Below, one piece after another: positions 2,660 to 29,643 of a stretch of DNA of 29,698 nt. This DNA is from a virus. The stretch's first letter is position 1. Every line of letters starts with the position of its first letter. A program made the position numbers and the translations under genes. The notes beneath the pieces are model-generated. The model searched no databases, had not been told where the DNA came from, and worked only from the letters and a program-made list of their open reading frames with translations. The stretch lies in the IMG/VR virus record IMGVR_UViG_3300045988_079213, positions 1 to 29,698 of that record; one strand, given 5' to 3'.

Positions 2660-4078
2660 TTACTCTCCTATTAGTTGCGCCAGTGTTTCATATTCTGATT
2701 GTGATATTGTGTAGTCAATGTCACCAACTTTAATTCCTTGTCTAAATTTTGTTTCCAAATTTACGTCAAAAAGATTTGCTTGTTCTGAGACTTTGCCAAC
2801 CGCCATTCCTCTTCCTGAGTGGTGAAAGTCTATCAATGTAAATCCGGTTCCAAGCAGCTGCGTGTAAACAGATTCAGCAAACGCATCTTTAAGTTTTATC
2901 TCTATGTTCCACGCATAGTCGCTTGAGCACTCAATGATAGTATTTCCGCTTGTTTCATAATCCGAAAGTGGTATGCTGTAGTTTGTTTCGCCAATTGCTT
3001 CTTGTTTGCTAAGTTTTACAACTAGGCTTTTAAGGTTTTTATCATTGAGTCTCGAAATATTAACATCATAACTCACATTGATGTAATCGCCATTGCCGTC
3101 CTCAGCTCCATTAGCCTTACATCTCTCTATCCTAACTGTATCAATGATTGGCGGATGCCACGGCATTATCTCCAGTGTATTATTTTTTACCGTCTCACCG
3201 TTTCGACTATCAATAACTTTTCCTGTGATTTTTAATAGCTGATTAACAGCATCCACAGTTTGCGTACCAGTGTTGTACGTAATATCATCTACAGTTATAG
3301 ACTGCGACCTCAAATGTGCATTGTACTTAAATGTATTGTTGAGTGTGATTTTTACTTTTGATTGTCCCTGCACAAAGCCGCCATATTTTGAAAAATTCTC
3401 GGTTTCATCTGCTACGGATATTTCGCATTCCGGAAGCATGTCAGGAGTCGGTCTTACAGTTATAAGCGGTGCATCTATGCGGCCAAGCGATGTACTTCCG
3501 TTAAAGGTAAATACTCGGATCATCAGCTTTACCTCTGCAGTTGGAAAATATTCCTTCCACGATTCTGGAAGCGTCCACGATGTATCAGTTGGAATTTTGT
3601 CCGCTATTTTTGTATATGTGCTTGGATTGTTGTTTGCCATGACGTAGACGTCATGTGTAAACGCTGTTGATTTTCTATGCGTTAAAATCTCAAATGACTC
3701 GCCAAACGTAATTTCAGATTTTGATGTTGTCGGCGAAGAGGCTCTCGGTATTGTTGTGAGCCATGTATAATCTGATGTTGTGAGTGTTCCGACAATTTTT
3801 GTATTAAAGCTTGCCGATGCTGCTACTCTCTTTGTTCCGTCAAATTCATGATCAATCCAAATTCCAACGCTATAAATCACTTGAGAACTGCCATTGACTT
3901 TAAATCGTGTTGTAAACGGATAACTAACTCCATTTACTGTCAAGGTTCCGTATGCATTTGTATGCTCAGCGTAATATCCACTTGAAGCATGCATCGATAA
4001 ATACACTGCAAGATATGTGCGATTATTTACAATGTCTTGTTGCCCTTGTGAAAACGTAATGCTTGTCCAATATCCCAT
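2660..4078 (-). CDS. Receptor-binding / tail fibre-like structural protein (DUF859-like N-terminus)
   Basis: 472 aa, directly downstream of the Tal-like gene. N-terminal pattern ITFSQGQQDIVNNRTYLAVYLSMHASSGYY... resembles the siphovirus DUF859 family. C-terminal TLIDFHHSGRGMAVGK is typical of Gram-positive phage minor structural proteins. Confidence 0.6.
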   Translation of the reverse strand: MGYWTSITFSQGQQDIVNNRTYLAVYLSMHASSGYYAEHTNAYGTLTVNGVSYPFTTRFKVNGSSQVIYSVGIWIDHEFDGTKRVAASASFNTKIVGTLTTSDYTWLTTIPRASSPTTSKSEITFGESFEILTHRKSTAFTHDVYVMANNNPSTYTKIADKIPTDTSWTLPESWKEYFPTAEVKLMIRVFTFNGSTSLGRIDAPLITVRPTPDMLPECEISVADETENFSKYGGFVQGQSKVKITLNNTFKYNAHLRSQSITVDDITYNTGTQTVDAVNQLLKITGKVIDSRNGETVKNNTLEIMPWHPPIIDTVRIERCKANGAEDGNGDYINVSYDVNISRLNDKNLKSLVVKLSKQEAIGETNYSIPLSDYETSGNTIIECSSDYAWNIEIKLKDAFAESVYTQLLGTGFTLIDFHHSGRGMAVGKVSEQANLFDVNLETKFRQGIKVGDIDYTISQSEYETLAQLIGE

Positions 4079-13877: not shown

Positions 13878-15557
13878 CTAAATCAGATTTTTATAATCAT
13901 CATAGTGACGTTTAAATACAACATACGAATCTAATAAGCTTGCAGTTCCATCTATTCGCTTCAAACTTGAATAACCTTTTTTCGGCTGAATGTTTCCCTT
14001 ATTGTCATGCTGCACCGTCGTGTTCCCCAAGCACCACCTGAGGATTGGGTTATTGTTATAATTGATTCTCCTCGCTCTTAGGTCTGCTTCAAGCTCTTTC
14101 ATTGGATTTGAAAGAACTTTAAATATTTGCCTTACCTCTTCAACTGCTGCTTCTCCATATTTTTCACGAGTTCGTTTCATGACAATATCTGCTCCCCATA
14201 TGTCAAACCCGTTCCAAACCGGAATAAAGCCAACTTCTTTTGCAAATTGCCTGTCCCATTCAGCAACAAAATCTTGATCTATTTTATTTCCCGGACAATA
14301 TGTAACAAGCCCTTGATCTCGCCAAACATCATATGGTACTTTGTCTTCGTATATTTTTCGTTCTGCAACCTCTTCAGCAATAAAATATTGCTGATATACA
14401 TATATGGTCTCATCATTTTTAATTTGGAATGTGTACGATAAACACGTAAGGTCTGTGGTGCTTGATAGATCGTATCCGCCTATTACATATTTGGGCTTTA
14501 ACTCTTTAATGTCGAATGTTGCCGGATTTGTTATATCATCTAAACTCAACCAGCTTGCAGAATCGGTTTCTCTTATATTGCAATTCTTTGTCAAAAATGC
14601 CTTGAGGTACATTCTCGGATTTGCAACGGTTTTATCCCACTCGTCTTTTAGTGCTTGTTTATTTCGAATTGTGCCGAGTCCCGGATTTGCTTTAATTAGA
14701 TTCTTAAAATCTTTCCACTCTTCTTTTTTATCGAGTTCATATATAAAAAAAATACTGCGTTCGTCAACAAATGATTCCTGCAGCAATATGTTGCTTCCCT
14801 CTTCATAGATTTCATCATATAGATCTTCGCGGATTGTGCCTGCTGTAGATGTAATAAGAGCAAGAGGTTCAAGTCTGTTATCCATGCCCTTATACATGAT
14901 GTCGTATAAAGCCCTGCCGTTCTTCCACTGATGTATTTCGTCCATATCAACAAAATGTACATCAAATCCATCGAGCGTATCAGAATCAGATGCAAGTGGT
15001 TTGAATTTGCCATCATTAAAATCCGTAACAATTTCGCCCACAAGGTTTCTTGTGTATTTTCTGAGATGACTATCTTTCTTGATCATCTTCTTTGCAACTT
15101 CCCAAACGATTTTCGCCTGGTCTTTTTTTGTTGCAACAGAATAGCATTCCGGACCACCTTCATTGTCAGCAATTAGCATATATAAGCCGATTGCTGAGGC
15201 AAGTAATGATTTGCCATTCTTTTTCGCTATAATGAGTACCGCCCTTTTAGTTCTTCTAAGGTTTGTTTTTTTATAACAAATTCCAAAGATTGATGCTATA
15301 AAAGCTTTTTCCCAGGGATCTAAAACAACAAGTTCTCCTGCTGATTTTCCCTTTATATTTCTGCAAAAATTCTCTATAAAACATATTGCATGATTGCTTT
15401 TTTTGCTATTAAAATATACTTTACTGCCCTTTTTTGTTATATCTTTTACAAGTTTTTTAACCTGAATTTTAACTTTTTGACTAACCTTGTCAGGGTGCTT
15501 TTTGATCCAATTCCAATATTCAATAAGCGGATTGTAATCATCCGGATAGCTTATCAT
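13878..15557 (-). CDS. terL: Terminase large subunit
   Basis: 559 aa. Walker A-like KKNGKS, DEIH Walker B-like motif and a C-terminal nuclease region. Terminase_1-like organisation. Confidence 0.9.
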   Translation of the reverse strand: MISYPDDYNPLIEYWNWIKKHPDKVSQKVKIQVKKLVKDITKKGSKVYFNSKKSNHAICFIENFCRNIKGKSAGELVVLDPWEKAFIASIFGICYKKTNLRRTKRAVLIIAKKNGKSLLASAIGLYMLIADNEGGPECYSVATKKDQAKIVWEVAKKMIKKDSHLRKYTRNLVGEIVTDFNDGKFKPLASDSDTLDGFDVHFVDMDEIHQWKNGRALYDIMYKGMDNRLEPLALITSTAGTIREDLYDEIYEEGSNILLQESFVDERSIFFIYELDKKEEWKDFKNLIKANPGLGTIRNKQALKDEWDKTVANPRMYLKAFLTKNCNIRETDSASWLSLDDITNPATFDIKELKPKYVIGGYDLSSTTDLTCLSYTFQIKNDETIYVYQQYFIAEEVAERKIYEDKVPYDVWRDQGLVTYCPGNKIDQDFVAEWDRQFAKEVGFIPVWNGFDIWGADIVMKRTREKYGEAAVEEVRQIFKVLSNPMKELEADLRARRINYNNNPILRWCLGNTTVQHDNKGNIQPKKGYSSLKRIDGTASLLDSYVVFKRHYDDYKNLI

Positions 15558-15924: not shown

Positions 15925-16020
15925 CTTTTTGGTGTGGGGGTAGTGTGTGCGCGTCGCGTGTGTTTTACAAAGCTGGGCGTCGGCTCGACTTTCCCTTTGC
16001 TTTTTATTTTTTTATGGGGG
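15925..16020. other. Candidate cos (packaging) site: GC-rich island between the HNH and terS genes
   Basis: GGTGTGGGGGTAGTGTGTGCGCGTCGCGTGTG ... GGGCGTCGGCTCGAC ... GGGGGG sits in an otherwise AT-rich genome. It is non-coding and in the position typical of HNH-dependent cos phages. Confidence 0.4.
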
Positions 16021-16025
16021 GAGTA

Positions 16026-18130: not shown

Positions 18131-18640
18131 TTAATCCTCGTATATTATTTTCATTCCAAGCTGTAGCGCTGTGAGTCTTTCCATGCACGCCCCCTTTGAG
18201 CCTTCCCAATTTTTCAGCATATAGATTGCCTTGCACATCTTTAGCAACCTTATATCTATATCCATGATTTCATCGTATGTAAGATTTGTGCTTTGATATG
18301 CCGACTCGAATCTCATTGGATTAACGACTCTTTCGTATTCTGTTTCAAGCAACTTTTCAGCTTTTTCAAATGCTGCTCTTGCATCCTCTTCTTTTAGTCC
18401 CGTGATTGGTCCCGAGATATAGATGCTAAGACCCTCCTGATGAGTGTCTTCTTTTGCATTCATCCACACATGTAGTTCTTTCATACATTCTGGACAAAGA
18501 TCTTCAAATTCATGTGCATACGCTTCGTTTTCTTTGTGATTTATGTTTAGTAATGTAAACCCATTAGCTGTTTTTTTGTTTTTATTTTCATTATAAGTTT
18601 CGTAAAATTTGCCACATCTGTTACATTTTGTTGCCATCAT
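18131..18640 (-). CDS. Zn-ribbon fused to a DUF4406 (nucleoside 2-deoxyribosyltransferase-like) domain
   Basis: 169 aa. N-terminal CNRC...CPEC zinc ribbon. The C-terminal LSIYISGPITGLKEEDARAAFEKAEKLL...VVNP matches the DUF4406 pattern. Confidence 0.55.
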   Translation of the reverse strand: MMATKCNRCGKFYETYNENKNKKTANGFTLLNINHKENEAYAHEFEDLCPECMKELHVWMNAKEDTHQEGLSIYISGPITGLKEEDARAAFEKAEKLLETEYERVVNPMRFESAYQSTNLTYDEIMDIDIRLLKMCKAIYMLKNWEGSKGACMERLTALQLGMKIIYED

Positions 18641-19364: not shown

Positions 19365-19595
19365 CTACAGCTTAGTGCTTATTTCGTCGCACTTTTCCAA
19401 TGCCTTATTCGACATCTGTGCTATGCTTTGAAATTTTTCTAACAGCATATTAAGAGCGTCAATTGTAGTTTTTAGATGGTCGCATTGAAAAGCTAACGCA
19501 ATTCTCAATATTTCAATATCCTGTTTTGTTTTATGATATTCTTCCACTTCTCCTTGAGCATATGACACTCTGCCCCCTAAATTGTTATCTTCCAT
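19365..19595 (-). CDS. Hypothetical helical protein
   Basis: 76 aa with a GAAAGGAG RBS. Confidence 0.5.
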   Translation of the reverse strand: MEDNNLGGRVSYAQGEVEEYHKTKQDIEILRIALAFQCDHLKTTIDALNMLLEKFQSIAQMSNKALEKCDEISTKL

Positions 19596-19617
19596 TTTTA
19601 CCGCTCCTTTCGGTTAG

Positions 19618-19947
19618 TCACAGCTGCTTTCCGGCAATACTGATGTCTTGGCAAGGGAACCCAAAGCACCAACATTTTGCTCGTGGGATGTCGTCTGAGA
19701 TAACTCTGCGAACATCATTTGCGTACCATTCTCCGTTAAGATACTCATCTTTCAATATCTCCTTTTGTCTTTGTTTTAGTGACAGTGTCATAAGATATTC
19801 TCGTTGCTTATCTGTGATTGTGTGCATTGAGCGATAGCTTGCTTCTGCGTACTTGTCAAACTCGCAGTGACCAACGCACTCATGCCCAGCAAGTTCCATG
19901 CCTCTTGTAAATCCACCGATCCCGCTAAAAAAATCTATAAACTTCAT
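19618..19947 (-). pseudogene. Truncated DNA (cytosine-5) methyltransferase: motifs I-IV only
   Basis: 109 aa. Motif I is FFSGIGGF and motif IV is GFPCQDIS, then a stop four residues later. Motifs VI-X and the target-recognition domain are absent from all downstream frames. Confidence 0.7.
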
Positions 19948-20004
19948 TTTTCGTCCTTGCTCTATTCCTTCAAAATCTTGTTATTATGACTTTCTTGCAG
20001 AACC

Positions 20005-20562
20005 TCATTCCCCCAACAATCCCAATTGTTGACTTCTTCCCTTGCAAACAATTCTATTTTTGCTACCCCCCCCTATAAGGGTTTCTATTCTTTTTATAGT
20101 TTCCTTTGGTTTTTGAGAGTGTTTCATAATTGACTCTTGGATAACTTGATGCACTGCATGCGATTTGACAATTTCTTTTGCTTTAGTGTCTTTGCTAATC
20201 CCTAACAAACATACTTCTGCATTTGCCCTCGTGTATGCTCCCATTCCCCAAAATAAACTATTTGATTTCTTGTTTTGCTTTATCCATACAAACGCAGCCG
20301 TTTTATATTCAAACCCCCATGCTTTCATAACCTTTAAAGCCTCTGAAATATTAGGAAATGTCGCCCACATAAAGCATACGGCTTTGTCCGTACAAATTCT
20401 GCGTATAGGCAAATTACATATTTCGTGAGTGCTCATTGTGTCATAATGCTGTTTTGCCATACCTCGTGAACTTGTTTTACTTCCACTTTGTCGATATTCC
20501 CACGGTGGATCTGCGTAAATTACGTCATACTTTTTATTCGTATCAAATATATCTACAAACAT
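20005..20562 (-). CDS. MT-A70-family N6-adenine DNA methyltransferase, C-terminus displaced by a G8 tract (intact frame would end at 19962)
   Basis: IYADPPWEY (DPPW) motif and HSQKPKE. After the G8 tract the +1 frame encodes the canonical end VAKIELFAREEVNNWDCWGNE. The annotated frame instead ends in unrelated residues. Confidence 0.8.
   Translation of the reverse strand: MFVDIFDTNKKYDVIYADPPWEYRQSGSKTSSRGMAKQHYDTMSTHEICNLPIRRICTDKAVCFMWATFPNISEALKVMKAWGFEYKTAAFVWIKQNKKSNSLFWGMGAYTRANAEVCLLGISKDTKAKEIVKSHAVHQVIQESIMKHSQKPKETIKRIETLIGGGSKNRIVCKGRSQQLGLLGE
20066..20073 (-). repeat. Homopolymeric G8 (plus-strand C8) tract inside the MT-A70 gene
   Basis: Counted directly: tgcta-cccccccc-tataagg. 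Loss of 1 G or gain of 2 G would restore the conserved C-terminus. Confidence 0.9.
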
Positions 20563-20582
20563 TTTTCCCTCTCTTGTTAAAG

Positions 20583-20927
20583 CTATATGTATTTAAAACC
20601 CTGTTCTCTTAATCTCTCTAACCTATTCAGTTCTGCCGTGCAGCTTTTTTCTTCGTTTAATAGCAAGTTGCCACTACGCGGTTTGTTTCTTTTGTATTGC
20701 CGGCTTGCTTCACGCTCCAGGTATGCAATCCTATACTTAAGTCTTTTTATTTCATCATCTATAAAAATAGTTTTGTTGACGATATGCCATGTGCACCGGA
20801 AGTCTTTTGGCTCATAGGTTTCGCAGCTTTCGCAGCACTGCACACATACCGCCACACCTCCACGCTTTGGACATTGTCTCGTTTCATGCGGATTTACTCT
20901 ACCGCAAGCCGGGCAGTTACTGCTCAT
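20583..20927 (-). CDS. Cys-rich zinc-binding protein with C-terminal coiled coil, unknown function
   Basis: 114 aa. CPAC...C...CVQCCESC pattern. Confidence 0.5.
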   Translation of the reverse strand: MSSNCPACGRVNPHETRQCPKRGGVAVCVQCCESCETYEPKDFRCTWHIVNKTIFIDDEIKRLKYRIAYLEREASRQYKRNKPRSGNLLLNEEKSCTAELNRLERLREQGFKYI

Positions 20928-22806: not shown

Positions 22807-22921
22807 ATATCCAAACTTGGAAACTTTAAATACATATTATATCCAAGTTTGGATATTGTCAACATATTTTTTCCGAATTTGGAAAAATTTTGTTGACTGT
22901 TTTCCGAGTTAGATGTATATT
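22807..22921. promoter_or_regulatory. Lysis/lysogeny switch: divergent promoters and three to four TCCAA-NN-TTGGA operators
   Basis: The minus-strand promoter is TTGACA (22857-22862), 17 nt, TAATAT (22834-22839), with O2 (22839-22856, ATATCCAAGTTTGGATAT) filling the spacer. The plus-strand promoter is TTGACT (22893-22898), 17 nt, TATATT (22916-22921). O1 is at 22807-22824, O3 at 22869-22886, and a degenerate site at 22900-22915. Confidence 0.7.
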
Positions 22922-22948
22922 TGTGTCATCAAGGAAAGGAGCTCTGTC

Positions 22949-23269
22949 ATGGGTTTAGAAAAAATAAAATATATAATGAAAATTAAAGGACTTACTGCCG
23001 AAATGCTATCGCAAAGAAGTGGGGTTCCTAAAAGCACAATAAATAAAATTACTTCTGGCGTAACTCCTGATCCAAGATACGAAACTGTGAAAGCCCTCGC
23101 TAATGCCCTTGACCTTAACATTGATGAGTTGTCGGAATATCTTGGAATTGACGCTACAGATTATGTGCCAGGAACTATCGCAGCTCATCATGATGACGAA
23201 TATTGGACAGCTGAAGAGCTTGATGAGATAGAACGATTCAAGGCATATGTGAAATCAAAAAGAAAATAA
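22949..23269 (+). CDS. CI-like repressor (XRE HTH)
   Basis: 106 aa from the ATG at 22949 (RBS GGAAAGGAG). LTAEMLSQRSGVPKSTINKITSG forms the HTH. Followed by the ImmA-like gene. Confidence 0.8.
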   Translation: MGLEKIKYIMKIKGLTAEMLSQRSGVPKSTINKITSGVTPDPRYETVKALANALDLNIDELSEYLGIDATDYVPGTIAAHHDDEYWTAEELDEIERFKAYVKSKRK

Positions 23270-23301
23270 ACTTCTAAATATATTGACTGCGGAGGTGGAC
23301 G

Positions 23302-23688
23302 ATGAATAGATATGAGGAATTGATTGCTGAGTATGAGAACGAGTTGAGCATTGAAGAACGTACCATGTTTAATAAGGGTCTCTACTGCGACAATGTTGTA
23401 TGGATTAATAGAAGAATGTCCACCGCCGAAAAGCTTTCAATTGTAGCCGAGGAAATAGGTCATTATAAAACCTCTTCAGGCGATATATTAGAGCAGGATA
23501 ATATATCAAATATAAAGCAGGAATTGCAAGCAAGGCGGTGGGCATACGAAAAAGTTCTGCCGCTTGATTTGATTATGCAGGCAATAACAAATGGTTTTAC
23601 TGAGGTTTATGATTTAGCCGAGCATTTCGATGTTACAGAGACATTTATGCGTGAATGCTTAAAGCATTACAGGTTACTAGATATATAA
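23302..23688 (+). CDS. ImmA/IrrE-family metallopeptidase-like protein (anti-repressor protease), variant metal motif
   Basis: 128 aa in the canonical position after the repressor. The expected HEXXH position reads EEIGH (residues 50-54). Confidence 0.65.
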   Translation: MNRYEELIAEYENELSIEERTMFNKGLYCDNVVWINRRMSTAEKLSIVAEEIGHYKTSSGDILEQDNISNIKQELQARRWAYEKVLPLDLIMQAITNGFTEVYDLAEHFDVTETFMRECLKHYRLLDI

Positions 23689-23821
23689 TAGAGATAAAAA
23701 TTTTAGGTGAGTCTGCTGGTGCATTTCGTGACATGAAACAGCCACATGAATTTTGTTATTCGTTTAGCAATCTATTTTGATTGCTTTATGCACATATTGA
23801 TTTTAGAGAGGAGTAAAAAAT

Positions 23822-24091
23822 ATGTTTAATCTCGACAAAGGAAAAGGTACTGCTGCCACTTCAGGAAATGAAGCTTATGTTGTAATCCAGGTAGTATTAA
23901 CCGAAAAATTTATAGGAACAGGCTCAGGTGTTGCCAGTCTTACAAATCTACAAAATACCATCAACGAACAAGCGGCTAAGGGTTATCGACTTCATACAAT
24001 TTCAACTACCGTAGGTGGTTCGAAAGGGTTTTTAGGCGGTGATAAAATCCAGGCGACTATGGTTTTTGAAGCTATCAATTTTAATGCTTAA
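23822..24091 (+). CDS. DUF4177-like small protein (lysogeny-module moron)
   Basis: 89 aa. The beta-alpha pattern ending LQNTINEQAAKGYRLHTISTT...ATMVFE resembles DUF4177. RBS GAGAGGAG. Confidence 0.5.
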   Translation: MFNLDKGKGTAATSGNEAYVVIQVVLTEKFIGTGSGVASLTNLQNTINEQAAKGYRLHTISTTVGGSKGFLGGDKIQATMVFEAINFNA

Positions 24092-24177
24092 CGTTATACA
24101 AATTCAACTTTATGATTATGATTTAAGCCGTAGAAACATAAAAAGTGAATTTATATGTGAAATTTGTGTAAAATACA

Positions 24178-24206
24178 TTGACATAATTTATTAAACATGG
24201 TAATGT
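24178..24206 (+). promoter_or_regulatory. Promoter of the Abi gene
   Basis: TTGACA (24178-24183), 17 nt, TGgTAATGT extended -10 (24198-24206). Confidence 0.5.
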
Positions 24207-24272
24207 ATGGACACGGAACGTACTCAGGTGTCCTTCGGGCCCTGGGTCTTTTTATTTATGTAGGTAAAAAAT

Positions 24273-25283
24273 ATGAATCAAAAACCTTTTAAAACACATG
24301 AAGAACAAATTGAATTACTAAAATCAAGAGGCATCGATTTTAGCGGCCTTGATGCAGAGAGCTGTGCAATAGACTACTTTTCACGAGTTGGATATTATCG
24401 TCTCATAAATGGATATAATAGGCCGTTTCTTGATAAAAGCTCGTTAACACAAGCTGATGACGACAAATATCGTAAAGGAACTACTTTAAAAGAGATTTAT
24501 GCACTCTATGTTTTTGATGATATGTTGAGAGAGTTTGTTTTAAAATATACACTTAAAATTGAGACTCACGTCAAAAGCCTCCTTGCATATAGAATTTCGA
24601 AACAGTATGGTCACGAGAATTATTTACGATACGCAAATTTTGATACTTCTAAAAAAATAGGATACAACGATGTTGTAAATGTTATATCAGAGATACACAA
24701 AACGATCTCTTCCAGAATTTCTGACCCAAGCATAAACCATTATTTGACAAAATATGGTTATGTTCCACTATGGGTATTAAATAACTCTCTTACTTTTGGC
24801 ACAATTAGTAAACTATACAGCATTATGAAGGTACCTGATAGGCAATATGTATCAAAACAGTTTATGATTCCCGATTCACAGCTCGGAAATTTCTTAATCT
24901 ATTTGACAAAGGTTAGAAATACCGCTGCACATTCCAATCGACTCTATTGTATGCGAAATAAACGCCCAATTGTTGATACACCAATCCACGCAGCTATGAA
25001 TATTGCCAAGAATTCTAAAGGTGACGAATATATATATGGCAAACGCGACTTTTTCGCCACTGTTATTATATTTAGGTATTTTTTATCTAATAACGATTTT
25101 AAGAAATTTATAGCCCAGCTAAAAAACATATTAAATAGTTTAAATCAGAGACTGAACTCAATACAAATATCAGCTATAAAGGAAATAATGGGGTTGCCTG
25201 ATGATTGGTATAAAATTCCTAAAAAACAATCTGCTAGGGGAGCATCAAAATGCAAAGATTGCTTATCTGAGGTTGACGATTAA
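24273..25283 (+). CDS. Abortive-infection protein, Abi_2 (AbiD/AbiF-like) family
   Basis: 336 aa. The N-terminal KPFKTHEEQIELLKSRGI...DYFSRVGYYRLINGY and later VRNTAAHSNRLY are hallmark Abi_2 patterns. Confidence 0.8.
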   Translation: MNQKPFKTHEEQIELLKSRGIDFSGLDAESCAIDYFSRVGYYRLINGYNRPFLDKSSLTQADDDKYRKGTTLKEIYALYVFDDMLREFVLKYTLKIETHVKSLLAYRISKQYGHENYLRYANFDTSKKIGYNDVVNVISEIHKTISSRISDPSINHYLTKYGYVPLWVLNNSLTFGTISKLYSIMKVPDRQYVSKQFMIPDSQLGNFLIYLTKVRNTAAHSNRLYCMRNKRPIVDTPIHAAMNIAKNSKGDEYIYGKRDFFATVIIFRYFLSNNDFKKFIAQLKNILNSLNQRLNSIQISAIKEIMGLPDDWYKIPKKQSARGASKCKDCLSEVDD

Positions 25284-25364
25284 AGTTTCTTATATTGTAC
25301 GATGGTAGATCTTTTGTACTTTTGAATTGATTATAAATCTTCGCATGCTATTCGGGAGGTGCGT

Positions 25365-26432
25365 ATGCCAAAAAAATATAAGTTTGAAAAATACTTTAAA
25401 ATAGATGGCGTGCGATATGTGGTTCGTGCTGATTCGGAATTTGAGTTGATTCAAAAATATACAAATAAGGTTCGTGACATTGAGGAGGGTAAAATAGTTC
25501 TTGCTGGTTCTACCACCGTTGAGGATTGGACTATGCAAGCGATTAAAGTTTACAAAACAAGGCAATCAGACTTAACTCAAAGAAAATATATAAGCAAAGT
25601 TAAATCTTGCATACTTGCTCAAATTGGAAAGATGCAGCTTAAAGCAGTTAAGCCTCTTCACTGTCAAAACACATTAAATCTTCAGGCTGGCAAATCCAAG
25701 GCGCAAATCAATGAAGTTTATCAGGCGTTAAACTTTATTTTTTCTAAAGCCGTTGAAAATCACCTCATTGTTGATAATCCAGCAAAGTATATTGTTAAGC
25801 CTCAAGGGACTAAAACACATCGCCGAGCAATCACGGAAATTGAAGAGCTTTATATTAGAGATGTTGCTAAAACCGATAGACGATATTATTTATATCTCTT
25901 AATGCTTGATTGCGGATGTCGTCCATCCGAAGCAGCAGAGTGTAAAGGTATGGATATATTGCTTAAAGACGACATCCCTTTGCTGCATATTCGCGGGACG
26001 AAATCGGTTAATGCTGATAGAACAGTTCCAATTCCGCACGATTTATATGAATTGATAAAGCATACGCCGCCTTTTGAATACATCGCATGCTACAGTTCCG
26101 GAACTGCTATAAAGTATGAAAATCGTAATCGTGTATGGACATCTTTTAAAAGACGACTAAACATCGCGATGGGCTGCAAGATGTATCGCAATCAGCTCAT
26201 ACCGCCTTACCTTGTCGCTCCCGATTTAGTGCCGTATTGCTTCAGACATACATATTGCACCAATCTTGCGCGAAAGGGAATTGACATCAGAATGGCTCAA
26301 AAGCTCATGGGCCACTCTGATATATCTCTTACAGCTAACATTTATACAAATCTTGACGAAAGCGATGTACTTGATGTAGCGAAGATATTAAATCAATCAA
26401 CGGCAAATAATAAAATTTCTAAACTACCATGA
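25365..26432 (+). CDS. int: Tyrosine recombinase / phage integrase
   Basis: 355 aa from the ATG at 25365 (RBS GGGAGG); the track start at 25359 is a GTG. Catalytic pattern is R (CGCRPSEA) ... HIRGTKS ... FRHTY ... GHSDISLTANIYTNL. Confidence 0.9.
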   Translation: MPKKYKFEKYFKIDGVRYVVRADSEFELIQKYTNKVRDIEEGKIVLAGSTTVEDWTMQAIKVYKTRQSDLTQRKYISKVKSCILAQIGKMQLKAVKPLHCQNTLNLQAGKSKAQINEVYQALNFIFSKAVENHLIVDNPAKYIVKPQGTKTHRRAITEIEELYIRDVAKTDRRYYLYLLMLDCGCRPSEAAECKGMDILLKDDIPLLHIRGTKSVNADRTVPIPHDLYELIKHTPPFEYIACYSSGTAIKYENRNRVWTSFKRRLNIAMGCKMYRNQLIPPYLVAPDLVPYCFRHTYCTNLARKGIDIRMAQKLMGHSDISLTANIYTNLDESDVLDVAKILNQSTANNKISKLP

Positions 26433-29593: not shown

Positions 29594-29643
29594 TTTTTTA
29601 CCTCTTTCTTTTTTTTGCTTTTGCTTTGCTTTATCTTATGTCT

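Follow-up and report, generated by a model that had tools for sequence, protein, structure and literature searches.

A poly-G tract as a probable slipped-strand switch in an MT-A70 methylase gene of a temperate phage of gut Clostridia

The IMG/VR record IMGVR_UViG_3300045988_079213 (positions 1 to 29,698; hereafter the window, meaning this whole stretch of 29,698 nucleotides) belongs to a temperate phage of gut Clostridia. On its minus strand it carries a gene which, judging by its sequence, is an orphan N6-adenine DNA methyltransferase of the MT-A70 family with predicted activity, and a run of eight G residues separates the body of this gene from its conserved C-terminal segment. It is likely that the G8 tract is a slipped-strand contingency locus switching the phage methylase, and that the window has caught the gene in the OFF state. 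This is argued from the anatomy of the gene, the length polymorphism of the tract among near-identical alleles, the association of tracts with frameshifts in related genes, and the recurrence of tracts at other positions of the gene and in C5 methylases.

The proposed switch would operate as follows. The tract appears to sit in a loop just ahead of the last conserved strand of the enzyme, where polymerase slippage at replication would add or remove one G. A tract of G7 (or G10) would keep the frame and yield the full enzyme (ON), and G8 would shift the frame and yield a product without the ELFAR...WGNE segment, predicted to be inactive (OFF). As the tract would be retained, the change would be reversible, and a population of phages or lysogens would be a mix of methylating and non-methylating genomes. 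Such a mix could serve as a bet-hedge, in which methylated DNA would escape classical restriction and unmethylated DNA would escape methylation-dependent restriction or the cost of methylation. We infer that slippage in the host is fast and reversible, that the G8 product is inactive and that the hedge is of benefit.

The MT-A70 Gene and Its Poly-G Tract

As encoded, the gene is a minus-strand open reading frame (ORF) of 185 amino acids at positions 20005..20562 (stop included), which begins with an ATG at 20562 and ends with a stop codon at 20005-20007. It is supported by the ORF list, by Pfam and by an identical product, P0001, found in public assemblies. A purine-rich sequence resembling a ribosome-binding site, GAGAGGG (20567..20573, minus strand), was read from the sequence only and precedes the ATG by 4 nucleotides. 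The catalytic DPPW motif is present (IYADPPWEY, ORF residues 15-23) and aligns with the DPPW of solved MT-A70 enzymes.

A first-pass annotation of this DNA had stated that the ORF with the DPPW motif runs into a plus-strand C8 run at 20066-20073, continues into unrelated residues and leaves the conserved C-terminus to the +1 frame. The sequence and the ORF list confirm the first of these statements, and translation confirms the others. The tract reads as G8 on the coding strand (20066..20073, minus strand) and is the predicted slipped-strand switch. The product in the G8 frame terminates in ...GGGSKNRIVCKGRSQQLGLLGE, where the unrelated, out-of-frame tail of 19 residues past the tract is SKNRIVCKGRSQQLGLLGE. 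Meanwhile, the +1 frame past the tract reads VAKIELFAREEVNNWDCWGNEVLQESHNNKILKE up to the stop codon at 19962-19964, and translation and alignments recognise in it the conserved C-terminal segment (V)AKIELFAREEVNNWDCWGNEV... (19962..20065, minus strand, stop included).

Modelling of the products by tract length gave 199 amino acids for G7, 185 for G8, 166 for G9 and 200 for G10. Tracts of G8 and G11 lead into the out-of-frame tail, and those of G6 and G9 run into an immediate TAG stop. The earlier expectation of an intact 199-residue enzyme from either G7 or G10 holds for G7, and the product of G10 is one residue longer. With G7, the gene would occupy 19962..20562 on the minus strand, an assignment supported by Pfam, by PHROG 359, by alignments with solved MT-A70 enzymes and by the exact match P0002. 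The gene contains, in other words, a mononucleotide run of at least seven inside an ORF, and a change in the length of this run switches the frame.

The G8 tract is the sole G/C run of at least seven in the 29.7-kb window. In dinucleotide shuffles, G8/C8 runs averaged 0.15 per window, and 12 of 100 shuffles contained at least one; by itself, in the window alone, the tract is only mildly unusual. Its significance comes from its position within the methylase gene, from codon usage and from the comparative data. GGG is the rarest glycine codon of the window phage (7% of 403), and GGG-GGG encodes none of the 26 Gly-Gly pairs in the other ORFs of the window; codon usage therefore does not account for the tract. 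The other homopolymers of the window include an A8 run at 14745-14752 (coding-strand T8), in frame within the ORF of the terminase large subunit, a G6 run at 16016-16021 and a T8 run at 29609-29616 near the right end.

The Segment Lost behind the Tract

The product as encoded with G8 covers only positions 1-150 of the 172 positions of the Pfam MT-A70 profile (PF05063), and the G7-repaired product covers the whole domain, positions 1-172, with an E-value of 2.5e-31. The repaired product also matches PHROG 359, "DNA methyltransferase" (E-value of 4e-74). By its profile match, the encoded 185-residue product is a truncated member of the MT-A70 family.

The phmmer comparison of the repaired protein with the chains 7f4r/7f4l of the Tetrahymena-type DNA N6-methyladenine (m6A) methyltransferase gave an E-value of about 3e-19, and the comparison with METTL3 gave about 1e-10. 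Both alignments with solved enzymes span query residues 8 to 186-187 and thus take in ELFAR...WGNE, which agrees with the earlier claim that MT-A70 proteins end in a conserved segment of this type. In the Tetrahymena-type chains, the counterpart of the lost segment in the alignment is the C-terminal strand. A BLASTP comparison of the C-termini of the window protein and METTL3 pairs ELFAR with ELFGR and GNE with GNQ (the numbering of the METTL3 sequence agrees with PMC5023411).

In METTL3, residues Phe534, Arg536, His538, Asn549 and Gln550 contact S-adenosylmethionine (SAM), and the N549A/Q550A substitutions bring the activity down to background (PMC5023411). The SAM-binding segment with the equivalents of METTL3 F534, R536, N549 and Q550 is intact in the window, where it lies in the +1 frame; only the G7 alleles of related strains (L163-L165) have it in frame. 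As the segment lost behind G8 aligns with the SAM-contact residues of METTL3, the G8 product is left without cofactor-binding residues and a core strand. From this homology, it is predicted to be inactive, that is, OFF.

Tract Length in Close Relatives

An exact-sequence look-up in public assemblies found the G8 product (P0001, 185 amino acids) on 6-7 contigs from four sources, JGI, Logan, ENA and NCBI. The exact G7 product (P0002, 199 amino acids) was likewise found in public assemblies, and three of its contigs were inspected. The contigs Logan ERR589350 and ENA ERZ27263190, obtained with different assemblers, share 100% identity with the window along 5.5 kb and 3.8 kb, respectively, and include both the G8 tract and the truncated C5 methylase gene that follows it.

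The same place is occupied by G7 in three related strains (L163, L164 and L165) with 92-96.5% overall nucleotide identity to the window. Compared with the window gene, their genes show 2-3 synonymous differences in 600 nucleotides and none in the 104 nucleotides after the tract. Thus, the tract is polymorphic in length among otherwise near-identical alleles. The first-pass annotation had regarded G8 as the OFF state of a slipped-strand switch and had proposed a comparison of tract lengths in related phages. The comparison gave the predicted result, with both G7 (ON) and G8 (OFF) found, and the interpretation of G8 is supported by these alleles, which encode an otherwise identical protein, as well as by further OFF lengths in the protein cluster described below.

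It could be supposed that the true tract is G7, the gene is intact and G8 is a homopolymer miscall made in sequencing or assembly, as the first-pass annotation had allowed. Homopolymers of at least eight are error-prone on several platforms, and the repaired protein is identical to proteins from other samples. Nevertheless, the same miscall would have to be present in the two 100%-identical assemblies made by different assemblers and on all the contigs from four sources that encode the G8 product. The pattern seen in the whole family, described in the next section, is a further difficulty for this explanation.

The cluster of proteins at 90% identity comprises 28 members, 15 of which were listed and compared. 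Among these 15, the ends of 11 are of the G7 type, and four are OFF (P0001, P0009, P0012 and P0014). By DNA, P0001 and P0009 are G8 alleles, P0012 has GGT followed by G6, and P0014 has GGT followed by G8. Among the contigs with OFF alleles, G8 was read in L174 and L175, GGT with G6 in L171 and L172, and GGT with G8 in L173. P0012 and P0014 had been taken for G9 and G11 from their protein ends, a reading that was rejected when the DNA revealed the interrupted tracts. At the site of the window tract, G8 recurs in L161, L162, L174, L175, L003, L169 and L100.

Positions 19500-20700 had no megablast match among cultured and GenBank phages, and the tblastn search found distant homologues only, with identity of 60% or less, the best being an uncultured faecal phage; no annotated close relative of the window phage emerged. 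A scan of IMG/VR and the JGI metagenomes with a degenerate DNA pattern around the tract returned one informative locus (L169, G8) and three chance matches.

Tracts across the Methylase Family

Protein-guided scans collected 80 viral contigs and 80 genome loci, from which 151 distinct gene sequences were classified. Apparent OFF calls made by tblastn through a natural stop codon or a second paralogue were reclassified by hand inspection. Genome loci with an identity of about 46% and above belong mostly to gut and rumen Clostridia, including Lachnospiraceae, Oscillospiraceae, Faecalibacterium and Flavonifractor. The set of genome loci also extends to Actinomycetota (35-41% identity), and some of its placements are odd.

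A G/C run of at least seven is present in 59 of the 151 genes, of which 27 (46%) are frameshifted and 32 are in frame. In every frameshifted case inspected, the change of frame is located at the run. Among the 92 genes without such a run, none is frameshifted, two carry nonsense mutations and 90 are intact, so that frameshifts are strongly associated with the presence of a run (Fisher p of about 1e-11 to 1e-13). The two tract-less copies with in-frame stop codons, L012 and L104, are the only disrupted ones among these 92. Out-of-frame tracts also occur in cultured isolates, namely Faecalibacterium intestinale, Flavonifractor porci and Ruminococcaceae AM07-15.

This pattern speaks against a sequencing or assembly error as the origin of G8. 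A proportion of 46% out-of-frame genes among those with tracts, three cultured isolates included, greatly exceeds the error rates of consensus sequences, and such errors would need to strike methylase genes only. Such an origin of G8 is considered very improbable.

Runs of G or C with lengths of 7-14 occupy five or more positions in the gene in different lineages. Just past the DPPW motif (nucleotide 79 of the gene), G7 is in frame and G8 and G9 are out of frame. Ahead of the CFMWAT strand (nucleotides 145-166), G6, G9, G10 and G14 are in frame and G7 to G11 are out of frame. A G11 run is located at nucleotide 287. The site of the window's loop (nucleotides 471-490) has G8 out of frame in L003, L169 and L100 and G9 in frame in L068. 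In L062, a C8 run lies within the DPPW codons themselves. In-frame lengths at one site differ by three (G6 and G9), with out-of-frame lengths in between.

The proteins of L003 and L169 are 85% identical to the window protein, and that of L100 is 69% identical. All three genes are OFF at the loop, yet the downstream reading frame with ELFAR...W..WG[ND]E is intact in each. In old pseudogenes, such conserved downstream frames would not have stayed open. Compared with the 3-kb flanks, runs of at least seven are 11 times denser in the gene in viral contigs and 14 times denser in genomes. Family-wide, tracts are more frequent than composition, codon usage and the neighbouring DNA would lead one to expect; for the window alone, the result is weak.

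Another explanation assumes that the full enzyme is produced from G8 by programmed +1 ribosomal frameshifting or RNA polymerase slippage, with G8 representing a low-expression or regulated state. A +1 translational frameshift had also been named in the first-pass annotation. Runs of identical bases permit re-pairing of tRNA and slippage of transcripts, and G8 with the same need for +1 occurs in three divergent lineages (the window, L003/L169 and L100). On the other hand, close relatives are in frame with G7, so that the slippery sequence is not fixed and conserved. Other alleles require the opposite shift, and G7, G8, G9, G10 and G11 all occur at other sites. The 0 frame has no rare or stop codon right past the run, and the predicted RNA structure downstream of it is no better than that of shuffled sequences (minimum free energy of -19.3 kcal/mol, compared with -16.5 on average after shuffling; z = -1.04). 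The variety of lengths and the lack of a predicted downstream structure make programmed recoding a poor explanation of G8, and little credence is given to it. Some leaky transcriptional or translational slippage at G8 is possible.

Two further observations concern the extent of the family. In L066 (positions 3061-3300), an out-of-frame G8 run follows DPPW and the frame is restored about 60 codons on; this is probably a dead copy with a double frameshift. Besides, homologues with 49-55% identity are encoded by spindle-shaped viruses of Nitrosopumilaceae and also lie on contigs binned as Thermoplasmatales and Saccharibacteria (L111 and L122). This spread reflects either a very wide distribution or mis-binning.

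Neighbouring C5 Methylases and Methylase Modules

Directly downstream of the MT-A70 gene of the window lies a stub of a C5 cytosine DNA methyltransferase gene (19618..19947, minus strand). It encodes 109 amino acids with motifs I and IV only, matches positions 1-80 of the 324 positions of Pfam PF00145 and thus represents a second inactivated methylase of the module. In that place, L163 has an intact C5 methylase of 438 amino acids. Homology with L163 stops at position 19628 of the window, and unrelated small ORFs follow; this indicates that the C5 gene of the window lineage was truncated by deletion or replacement.

The stub raises the question of whether the whole methylase module is being lost. 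G8 would then be an ordinary inactivating mutation at a hotspot, the tract would have no maintained function, and the gene would not be used again. The reduction of the adjoining C5 gene is consistent with such decay, as is the identity of G8 in all the contigs of the window strain that were found. A few relatives are indeed dead, by nonsense mutations in the two tract-less copies mentioned above and by a G8 frameshift that is restored only downstream in L066. The state of the gene itself speaks differently, since the 34 codons past the tract are still open and show no difference from the G7 alleles, and the three divergent lineages that are OFF at the loop keep both the downstream frame and the motif. 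Moreover, the tracts are made of the rarest glycine codon, and they recur at five or more positions of the gene as well as in another family of methylases. Roughly half of the genes with tracts are in frame. Taken together, these features fit maintained reversible tracts better than a one-way loss. Decay of the module is regarded as unlikely, though for the lineage of the window it is a real possibility and more probable than a miscall or recoding.

Several points nevertheless weigh against the slipped-strand switch. The strains in which G7 and G8 were read are distinct, with flanks that are 92-96.5% identical, and do not form one clone; the length variation was read between assemblies. At the window's loop, the out-of-frame alleles of the more distant lineages are all G8, which a random walk need not predict. 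Most of the assemblies stem from short-read metagenomic data, in which errors are more frequent in long G runs. Finally, the C5 neighbour is irreversibly truncated, so the methylase module may be decaying and G8 might never revert. With these points taken into account, the slipped-strand switch is still the likely explanation of the tract.

The recurrence of tracts in the second methylase family was observed directly. Many of the runs in the flanks of the MT-A70 gene fall in adjoining C5 methylase genes. A run in the codons of C5 motif I (FSGVGGF) is G7 in L001:3776, L025:3777 and L173:1120, where the gene is intact, and G8 in L171:2148 and L172:2148, where it splits the gene. In L171, both the MT-A70 and the C5 methylases are OFF. 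More runs, of G7-G13, were seen in flanking C5 DNA_methylase ORFs of relatives with a higher GC content: L036:1530 (G13), L057:1184/1264, L060:201/466 and L076:1019/1287. Very long runs are present in other flanks (G20 in L052, G18 in L056 and G11 in L021), and some of the ORFs concerned have no Pfam match.

In some relatives (L171, L174 and L175), the modules contain up to four methyltransferase types: N6_Mtase-like, MT-A70, C5 and D12/Dam-like. L174 and L175 additionally carry a gene of the PAPS-reductase family, which suggests extensive DNA-modification cassettes.

A broader proposition can be put forward tentatively, with chances somewhat short of even. Temperate phages of gut Clostridia may hold modules of two to four methylases, in which MT-A70 and C5 genes have convergently gained poly-G tracts. 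These tracts would give the phages reversible combinatorial methylation "coats", a phage-side counterpart of the phasevarion, hedging between restriction-modification and methylation-dependent restriction across hosts.

Genome Context

The temperate lifestyle of the window phage is reflected in a lysogeny module at 22913-26432 on the plus strand. It includes an ImmR-like repressor with a helix-turn-helix domain (22913-23269), an ImmA/IrrE-like metallopeptidase (23302-23688), an Abi-like "abortive infection resistance" protein of 336 amino acids (24273-25283) and a tyrosine integrase (25359-26432), all on the plus strand. The module additionally holds a DUF4177 protein. No tRNA genes were found anywhere in the window, nor was an att site, and the ORFs at its right end have no Pfam matches.

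Divergently from the lysogeny genes, a long minus-strand operon comprises transglycosylase, methylase, replication initiator, terminase and structural genes. The position of the methylase in this lytic-side (early) operon suggests that the enzyme would act on replicating phage DNA, and phage DNA, not host promoters, is probably its main substrate. As the operon is divergent from the module of the ImmR/ImmA-like repressor and integrase, expression of the methylase in the lysogen is doubtful, and the gene was not assigned to the phasevarion class, that of host-regulon switches. A gene similar to DUF4406 and nucleoside 2-deoxyribosyltransferases (18131-18640, minus strand) is located about 1.3 kb downstream of the methylases and may have a function in nucleotide or DNA modification.

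Implications

If the tracts do switch, DNA methylation in these phages would be a stochastic, heritable and reversible trait and not a fixed one. This would bear on host range and on the arms races of phages and hosts in the gut, and it would affect the linking of phage contigs to hosts by methylation in metagenomes. Annotation would also be affected, since about half of such genes would be reported as split ORFs or pseudogenes. Phage contingency loci, a concept proposed recently and so far covering virulent coliphages and phages of Campylobacter, would come to include temperate phages of the dominant gut Firmicutes, and also classical DNA methyltransferases. Dozens of natural ON/OFF allele pairs exist in the family, and its cultured lysogens (Faecalibacterium, Flavonifractor and Ruminococcaceae) lend themselves to direct testing.

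Comparison with Known Systems

In bacterial phasevarions, changes in the length of simple repeats toggle the frame of a methyltransferase and, hence, switch methylation ON or OFF (PMC13076061). The window gene resembles these systems, Type III mod genes among them, in that an adenine methyltransferase ORF carries a simple repeat whose length sets the frame. Unlike them, it is an orphan MT-A70 gene on a temperate phage and not a chromosomal Type III mod gene, and no effect on a regulon is claimed.

The closest functional analogue on the phage side is the agt gene of phage T2. Its poly-A run frameshifts reversibly, with a reversion frequency about 1000 times that of point-mutation reversion, and the switching alternates escape from TgvAB, a modification-dependent defence, with escape from McrA/BC (Gomez, Barrick & Waters, bioRxiv 10.1101/2025.10.21.683753). 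The two systems share a mononucleotide run in a phage DNA-modification gene and would share the functional logic proposed here. They differ in that T2 is a virulent coliphage with a poly-A run in a hydroxymethylcytosine glucosyltransferase gene, whereas the window represents a temperate Clostridia phage with a poly-G run in the gene of a predicted m6A methyltransferase, for which the evidence is comparative.

Two further phage cases are summarised in the same preprint (bioRxiv 10.1101/2025.10.21.683753). Hypermutable polyG tracts lie in the receptor-binding proteins of Campylobacter Fletchervirus phages (Sorensen et al. 2021, Cell Rep 35:109214), and a polyG tract was noted in the methylase gene of Bordetella phage BPP-1 and not followed up (Liu et al. 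2004). As summarised there, both resemble the present case in having polyG runs of 7-11 in phage genes that give phenotypic sub-populations, the BPP-1 gene being likewise a methylase gene, and both differ from it in that neither the MT-A70 family nor convergent tracts at many positions are involved. The Campylobacter CJIE1 prophage was also considered as a precedent for a phage methylase and was rejected, as the paper concerns host tracts. In view of such contingency tracts, some of them in DNA-modification genes, the remark in the first-pass annotation that a switchable methylase in a temperate phage would be unusual needs softening.

With regard to the enzyme, the window protein shares with 7f4r/7f4l and METTL3 the DPPW motif and the C-terminal SAM-binding segment ELF.R...GN[EQ]. 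Unlike them, the intact phage enzyme consists of one minimal domain (199 residues), with no evident partner subunit.

The open-access literature searched yielded no account of a poly-G switch in an MT-A70 phage methylase or in any phage of gut Clostridia, nor of the family-wide pattern of tracts, which does not prove that none exists. The mechanism is already known from the systems compared above. What would be new is its occurrence in an MT-A70 phage methylase, and the convergent tracts in multi-methylase modules are potentially new as well.

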